Source: Escherichia coli
Lineage (GTDB): Bacteria > Pseudomonadota > Gammaproteobacteria > Enterobacterales > Enterobacteriaceae
Length of the DNA: 64,000 bases
Strand: one strand, 5' to 3'
Assembly: GCF_013122565.1 (NCBI RefSeq)
Contig: NZ_CP053258.1
The notes below the pieces were generated by a model that saw only the letters and a list, made by a program, of their open reading frames with translations, was not told the DNA's origin and made no database searches. Position 1 is the stretch's first letter. The number at the start of each line of letters is the position of its first letter. The position numbers and the translations under genes were made by a program. This document shows, in pieces, positions 34,289 to 34,321 of the stretch.

Positions 34289-34321
34289 CATTCCCCTCTC
34301 CCCTTCGGGCTGAGGGGAATG
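34289..34321. terminator. 10-bp stem-loop between convergent yaeH and cdaR
   Basis: CATTCCCCTC-(13 nt loop)-GAGGGGAATG perfect inverted repeat; no U-tract on either side. Confidence 0.4.

Follow-up and report, generated by a model that had tools for sequence, protein, structure and literature searches.

The spacer between the convergent genes yaeH and cdaR of E. coli holds a strong stem-loop at positions 34289-34321 of the window (the whole 64-kb stretch of DNA that was analysed, to which all positions refer unless K-12 or another locus is named), and the question is where this hairpin comes from and what it does at the ends of the two genes. Upstream lies dapD (32740-33564, + strand; placed from the list of open reading frames [ORFs] and the gene order of annotated E. 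coli loci), followed by yaeH, the gene of a DUF3461 protein (33878-34264, + strand; ORF list and RefSeq annotation of orthologous loci). Facing it are cdaR (34353-35528, - strand; 1,158 nt from the start annotated in K-12) and, further on, degP (35665-37089, - strand; ORF list). Between the end of the yaeH stop codon (34264) and the stop of cdaR (34353) there is a spacer of 88 bp. Within it, sequence, folding and a pattern search place the 5' arm of the stem, CATTCCCCTC, at 34289-34298 (+ strand), followed by a 13-nt loop, TCCCCTTCGGGCT, at 34299-34311; sequence, folding and alignment place the 3' arm, GAGGGGAATG, at 34312-34321. The three parts, CATTCCCCTC-TCCCCTTCGGGCT-GAGGGGAATG, make up a perfect 10-bp inverted repeat, and the fold is lengthened by an inner 3-bp helix within the loop (CCC at 34301-34303 with GGG at 34307-34309). 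The original prediction of a perfect 10-bp stem with a 13-nt loop in a convergent 88-bp spacer is thus borne out by the sequence and the ORF list.

The stem-loop also withstood the folding check. Its minimum free energy (MFE) is -21.8 kcal/mol on the + strand and -22.4 kcal/mol on the - strand, with a z of about -4.8 to -4.9 and no equally good fold in 200 shuffles. The inverted-repeat pattern has a single site in the window and no match in 100 shuffles, and no further copy was found in the window when up to three mismatches in the arms and any loop were allowed. Perfect 10-bp inverted repeats with a loop of 3-20 nt occur at five loci in the 64 kb (eight nested counts), against a mean of 1.35 counts in dinucleotide shuffles; given this shuffle background, a chance occurrence in a given 88-bp spacer is improbable (roughly 0.002). 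A chance origin of the hairpin was rejected on the fold z, the pattern shuffles and the inverted-repeat counts together. No U-tract (T-tract) follows the main hairpin on either strand, as had been stated for this hairpin before, and a scan for the intrinsic-terminator consensus (GC-rich hairpin with a 7-8 nt U-rich tract within 0-2 nt) did not call it in either direction. Rfam covariance models run over 33500-35000 at E<=10 returned nothing at the hairpin. A 56-aa ORF that runs across it (34250-34420, - strand) was set aside as mechanical, given that it overlaps both gene ends and that the spacer is swapped wholesale in a third of genomes.

The spacer of the window does not contain the REP/BIME (PU) consensus palindrome (of the GCCGGATG...CATCCGGC type), so the earlier description of the hairpin as not REP-like is literally correct; the element nevertheless belongs to another known family, BoxC, later renamed PIT (Hoyne/Maher 2000) and TMECO (Holder et al. 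2015, PMC4666352). A profile built from the 22 K-12 BoxC sequences of PMC2267715 (suppl. 69) gave with nhmmer one significant match in the 64-kb window (E=2.3e-4, 17.3 bits; aligned 34285-34316, envelope 34283-34319), and simple BoxC motif regexes likewise hit only the yaeH-cdaR site. Aligned with the reverse complement of the family consensus, CTCGGACAGTCCCCTCGCCCCTTTGGGGAGAGGGTTAGGGTGAGGGGAACA, the left flank and 5' arm of the hairpin read CTCGGGCATTCCCCTCTCCCC where the consensus has CTCGGACAGTCCCCTCGCCCC, the loop region TTCGGG and the tail TGAGGGGAA are common to both, and about 13 nt, GAGAGGGTTAGGG, are missing between loop and tail. From nhmmer and from the alignment with consensus and orthologs, the remnant extends over 34283-34321 (+ strand) and consists of CTCGGGCATTCCCCTCTCCCCTTCGGG, the deletion of about 13 nt and CTGAGGGGAATG; the 3' stem arm goes back to the BoxC tail GGGTGAGGGGAAC. 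An intact BoxC measures about 50-56 bp and carries three consecutive G/C blocks (a hairpin and a GGGTGAGGG tail), which the window copy lacks. On its G-rich strand only two G-runs are left, GGG (34307-34309) and GGGG (34314-34317), short of the four G-tracts that define the HPG1/HPG2 motifs. Those G-quadruplex/hairpin motifs of Kaplan et al. 2016 (PMC5100583) contain GGGTGAGGG and GGGAGAGGG and appear to be the same repeats as BoxC, a name not used there. Judged by sequence, the window hairpin is therefore best classified as a truncated derivative of BoxC and not as an intact member: it shares with BoxC/PIT/TMECO/HPG the left flank and 5' arm CTCGGnCAGTCCCCTCnCCCC, the TTCGGG loop region, the tail and the intergenic location, but its stem pairs the 5' arm with the tail, and the triplex and quadruplex (G4) potential that underlies the later names of the family is gone.

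Hence the view that this is not a known repeat has to be given up, on account of the profile match and of near-full-length BoxC copies at the same position in sister species (see below). A search for other copies, several of which would have pointed to a known repeat family, had been proposed; by that measure the exact hairpin sequence occurs no more than once in any E. coli genome, yet it is a degenerate member of a family that is multi-copy, so that the earlier view falls in spirit. BoxC as a family is interspersed, multi-copy and intergenic, and at a stringent threshold a BoxC query matches a median of seven places in an E. coli genome, and 15 at most; this variant is intergenic and present once per genome. 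For K-12, 22-32 BoxC copies have been reported, 22 of which are listed in Petrillo et al. 2008 (PMC2267715), and the yaeH-cdaR site is not in that list. Neither were yaeH, cdaR, yaeI or degP found by gene name in the text and supplements of Holder et al. (PMC4666352), and the literature mentioning yaeH and cdaR together comprised only unrelated proteomics work.

Orthologous spacers suggest how the element reached its present form. In E. whittamii and Escherichia sp. MOD1-EC7003 the spacer is homologous in its other parts, and a near-full-length BoxC sits at the corresponding offset (profile positions 2-48, E=4e-10, and 5-50, E=1e-8, respectively); GGGAGAGGG is still there in both, and TTAGGG is all that is missing. 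The short form, with a tail identical to that of BoxC (GGGTGAGGGGAACA), is found in Escherichia sp. E1V33, and in E. coli ET450 five more loop bases are deleted, with the same 10-bp stem recreated. From these alignments, the hairpin is what survives of a BoxC element that has shrunk step by step through slipped deletions between its G/C runs. BoxC would have entered the yaeH-cdaR spacer of an ancestral Escherichia, and slipped deletions between G-runs would then have removed TTAGGG and later about 7 more nt, leaving the 5' arm of the element (TCCCCTC) to pair with its tail (GAGGGGA) in a clean stem of 10 bp. With the deletion of some 13 nt, the third G/C block and with it the potential for triplex and G4 formation were lost.

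The mRNA of yaeH ends at this hairpin. In the curated K-12 Term-seq data of Adams et al. 2021 (PMC7815308, Supp. file 1) a 3' end is listed at 183649 on the - strand, and since the K-12 and window spacers align without gaps (three differing positions, all outside the stem), this coordinate corresponds to window position 34324 (+ strand), 3 nt past the stem. Where the 3'-end nucleotide lies within the 61-mers of the list was checked against the dapD terminator. The window has T at 34324, where K-12 and most other E. coli have C. The end at 183649(-) has mean reads of 70,972 and 131,285 in two condition tabs, its coordinate occurring three times in the three-tab file; in the same tables, the dapD intrinsic terminator reaches 242,146 and 114,224 reads and degP 1,319 (PMC7815308). 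Adams et al. filed the end under "antisense cdaR" and did not assign it to the end of yaeH, since their rule admits as "primary" only 3' ends within 50 nt of the stop codon and the distance here is 60 nt. The high reads and the position of this K-12 end support the part of the original prediction that took the hairpin for an RNA 3'-end stabiliser.

Downstream, the fall in read coverage at this locus depends on Rho in K-12. DirectRNA-seq with and without bicyclomycin gave a Rho termination region with its peak at K-12 183583(-) (Rho score 5.05, p=1.9e-7; PMC7815308), that is window 34390, about 66 nt beyond the mapped 3' end, and the drug changed the ratio of downstream to upstream reads from 13/56 to 116/99. 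The Rho score is computed from 800-nt windows and bicyclomycin also raises spurious antisense transcription, so that the site is placed to a region and not to the nucleotide. The RNA directly 3' of the hairpin begins with AGTCAGCGCCGCC and is C-rich and G-poor, with C/G counts of 20/7 over its first 50 nt and 35/14 over 100 nt, compared with 22/22 in the last 100 nt of yaeH; this stretch (34322-34421, + strand), antisense to the 3' end of cdaR, is a candidate Rho utilisation region. Both the 3' end and the Rho data were obtained for the K-12 allele, and the allele of the window, from another strain, presumably behaves in the same way.

On the opposite strand, a second and weaker hairpin, which had been overlooked, directly adjoins the main one. 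This hairpin 2 (CCCGAGTTAACCGTCAGTTCGGG on the - strand, 34266-34288) folds and gave a terminator-like match with 8 pairs and the tail ATTATTTACG, the only call of the intrinsic-terminator scan in the spacer (34288-34266, - strand), and a U-rich tail, AUUAUUUACG (34256-34265, - strand), follows it, overlapping the yaeH stop codon. The TCGGG arm of hairpin 2 shares bases with the BoxC flank, and the arms differ between lineages, B4103-1 and MOD1-EC7003 having weakened ones. With a weak U-rich tail of this kind, hairpin 2 is a candidate weak intrinsic terminator for cdaR, and the sole candidate in that direction. Mapping of the 3' ends of both transcripts, proposed earlier as a check, is answered by the published K-12 data for the yaeH strand, where an end lies at the hairpin, but not for cdaR, since the Adams tables (PMC7815308) list no 3' end on its strand near 183.63-183.72 kb; the TERMITe supplements do not mention the locus.

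The spacer is polymorphic within the species. The form with this hairpin (type 1) was found by blastn in 3,564 of 5,426 complete E. coli genomes, including K-12, BL21 and O157:H7; megablast of the 88-bp spacer gives only 2,321 genomes, a word-size artefact that affects the K-12-type variant. A second form (type 2) occupies 1,784 E. coli genomes, including Nissle 1917 (positions 1286-1337 of locus L085). It is 52-53 bp long and contains an unrelated hairpin, GGCCGGGTAAAGTCTCACCCGGCTGTA, whose 11-pair stem is followed on the yaeH strand by ATTTTGTAAT, which makes it a canonical-looking intrinsic terminator. Type 2 is also present in E. albertii (L004) and in the representative of another Escherichia species (L005); the two spacer alleles are shared across Escherichia species, by either trans-species polymorphism or recombination. 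Six type-1 alleles differ only in the loop, in hairpin 2 or downstream, with the variation of the loop (34299-34311) within the species consisting of C/A at 34300 and the 5-nt deletion of ET450. As the stem is invariant in the type-1 alleles examined, covariation gives no evidence of selection either way. Exact identity to the window over 34280-34330 is rare, being found in three of the 3,564 type-1 genomes (e.g., TUM18780).

Beyond Escherichia, the region downstream of yaeH was compared in 80 Enterobacteriaceae species, and cdaR is convergent in 70 of these. In the other ten (L032, L033, L036, L041, L042, L054, L060, L070, L076 and L077) a convergent cdaR was not found within 700 nt of yaeH, and in Yokenella (L036) and two Cedecea (L042 and L076) the next gene after yaeH appears, from its sequence, to be degP. 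Among the 70 species the yaeH-cdaR spacer is hypervariable, with a length of 31-195 nt; REP-like palindromes occupy it in 34 species, and in 13 it contains a BoxC element (CCCTCACCC..CCCTCTCCC-N-GGGAGAGGG), in either orientation and sometimes in two copies. In E. coli PCN033 (L084, 1500-1635), two inverted BoxC elements, one of the CCGG-loop and one of the TTA-loop type, lie between flgG and flgH of a second flagellar cluster, and the first is 98% identical (49/50 nt) to a copy 3' of yaeH in Enterobacter species. E. coli WL297 has a BoxC copy that is identical over 50/50 nt to the Enterobacter copy downstream of yaeH.

The neighbourhood of yaeH varies on its other side as well. In K-12, an 813-bp phosphodiesterase gene, yaeI, stands between dapD and yaeH; in the window it is absent (33600-33727), and an unrelated segment of 128 nt stands in place of about 842 bp of K-12 (yaeI and part of the flanking spacers). 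The junction lies inside the T-tract of the dapD terminator (CTGCCCGATTTTTTTG in K-12, CTGCCCGATTGCTTTCTGG in the window). The presence of yaeI is independent of the spacer type, the gene being absent in PE164, B4103-1 and Nissle 1917 and present in K-12, WL297 and DETEC-P793. A sub-threshold Rfam match to sroE over the dapD terminator hairpin (33560-33606, - strand; 21 bits against a gathering threshold of 51, E=0.063) is almost certainly a chance hairpin match. According to Holder et al. (PMC4666352), strains differ by an unusual amount of rearrangement at BoxC loci, and the two spacer alleles and the presence or absence of yaeI described here agree with this.

Taken as a whole, the hairpin is probably a 3'-end protector of a Rho-terminated yaeH mRNA, shrunk from an ancestral BoxC insertion. 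On the yaeH strand a hairpin without a U-tract would not be an efficient terminator and RNA polymerase would read through it, enter the C-rich, G-poor sequence antisense to cdaR and be terminated there by Rho; 3'-to-5' exonucleases would then shorten the transcript as far as the hairpin, and a stable yaeH mRNA with its end 3 nt past the stem would remain. Such an arrangement was described by Dar & Sorek 2018 (PMC6061677) for Rho-terminated mRNAs, which end just past a stable stem-loop without a U-tract, with the rut immediately beyond it, and whose 3' ends arise by trimming by PNPase and RNase II up to the hairpin. The yaeH end resembles these in its stable U-less stem-loop, in the precise 3' end a few nucleotides downstream, in the excess of C over G just beyond the hairpin and in the Rho-dependent region that follows; of the features of a protective 3' stem-loop, the 3' end just past the stem and the readthrough on Rho inhibition were found in the K-12 data, and the lack of a U-tract and C>G in the window sequence. 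By analogy with that system, the 3' end of yaeH would be produced by exonuclease trimming, and the hairpin would stabilise the mRNA. REP elements act likewise in some operons, with the difference that the hairpin here is BoxC-derived and that its role towards exonucleases is assigned by analogy. With the type-2 terminator of Nissle 1917 and E. albertii it shares the position, the presumed role at the yaeH 3' end and a similar stem length; type 2 differs in its 11-pair stem with ATTTTGTAAT, whereas the window hairpin has no T-tract and relies on Rho.

Against this stands the suggestion, made in the original prediction, of a bidirectional transcription barrier, in which the hairpin would act as a U-less or weak intrinsic terminator for both yaeH and cdaR. 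A hairpin that is strong on both strands and lies between convergent genes, a yaeH-strand 3' end just past it, and on the cdaR strand hairpin 2, whose U-rich tail and terminator-like score come directly after, are what such a barrier would look like. However, neither strand has a U-tract after the hairpin, the RNA 3' end sits 3 nt past the stem, bicyclomycin makes downstream readthrough complete (13/56 to 116/99 reads), the tables of Adams et al. list no cdaR-strand 3' end, and earlier work cited in PMC4666352 is reported there to have found PIT/BoxC elements without terminator activity, so that we regard the barrier as unlikely. An effect of DNA-level structure (intrastrand triplex, G-quadruplex or cruciform) on replication or recombination would draw on the parent family, which forms triplex and G4 in vitro according to PMC4666352 and PMC5100583, and on the rearranged neighbourhood with its two spacer alleles and variable yaeI. 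Yet the middle purine block is lost and only GGG and GGGG remain, which leaves neither the three blocks of an intrastrand triplex nor the four tracts of a quadruplex, and according to Holder et al. (PMC4666352) intact copies themselves showed no stable triplex in vivo; this possibility is hardly credible here.

Somewhat less improbable than the barrier, though still an outside chance, is a neutral relic, that is decaying repeat DNA whose RNA 3' end is an unselected by-product and whose loss has no effect on fitness. Its polymorphic status (3,564 genomes with the element and 1,784 with the other spacer), the bases still being lost in ET450, the fast turnover of the spacer across Enterobacteriaceae and the reported rearrangement of BoxC loci (PMC4666352) would all be expected of such a relic. 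On the other hand, no allele examined is without a stable hairpin here, the type-1 variants differ in loop and flanks but all have the 10-bp stem intact, and the ET450 deletion takes loop bases and still recreates the same stem. A neutral relic also disputes selection and not mechanism, and to that extent overlaps with the 3'-end protector favoured above. For that protector, the canonical terminator of the 1,784 type-2 genomes indicates that the position needs some 3'-end hairpin and not this particular sequence, and any benefit must be replaceable, given that the element is missing from a third of E. coli genomes. The hairpin is thus a dispensable and ordinary 3'-end feature of a known mechanistic type, and not a new kind of element, because it is a shortened known repeat that marks the stable 3' end of yaeH.

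For the yaeH-cdaR locus alone, little is at stake: an unannotated hairpin is explained and a K-12 Term-seq peak filed as "antisense cdaR" is relabelled as the terminus of the yaeH mRNA. Within one species, one and the same gene end is built either as a Rho-dependent BoxC-derived module or as a canonical intrinsic terminator, and the type-1 and type-2 ends of yaeH are therefore a natural example of the switching between terminator types proposed by Dar & Sorek (PMC6061677). The wider bearing is on the BoxC family. In a comparison that covered part of the 22-23 K-12 copies, four intact ones have curated Term-seq 3' ends 2-8 nt past the hairpin, at 847200(-), 3781065(+), 4231270(-) and 632098(+) (Adams et al. 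2021, PMC7815308, Supp. file 1); that canonical BoxC copies also carry such 3' ends is modestly new. According to earlier work cited in PMC4666352, BoxC elements were reported without promoter or terminator activity, which fits a role as a stop for processing and not one in termination. Since at least four intact K-12 copies carry 3' ends at this distance, and since the remnant described here has shed the block needed for triplex and G4 formation while keeping and even tightening its hairpin, it is conceivable, and for now a tentative proposal, that BoxC elements are in general RNA-level hairpins that block exonucleases and set mRNA 3' ends, as REP elements do. For 30 years the debate on BoxC has turned on triplex or G-quadruplex DNA; the coincidence of BoxC hairpins with RNA 3' ends at several loci suggests a simple role at the RNA level that may be tested genome-wide in existing data.
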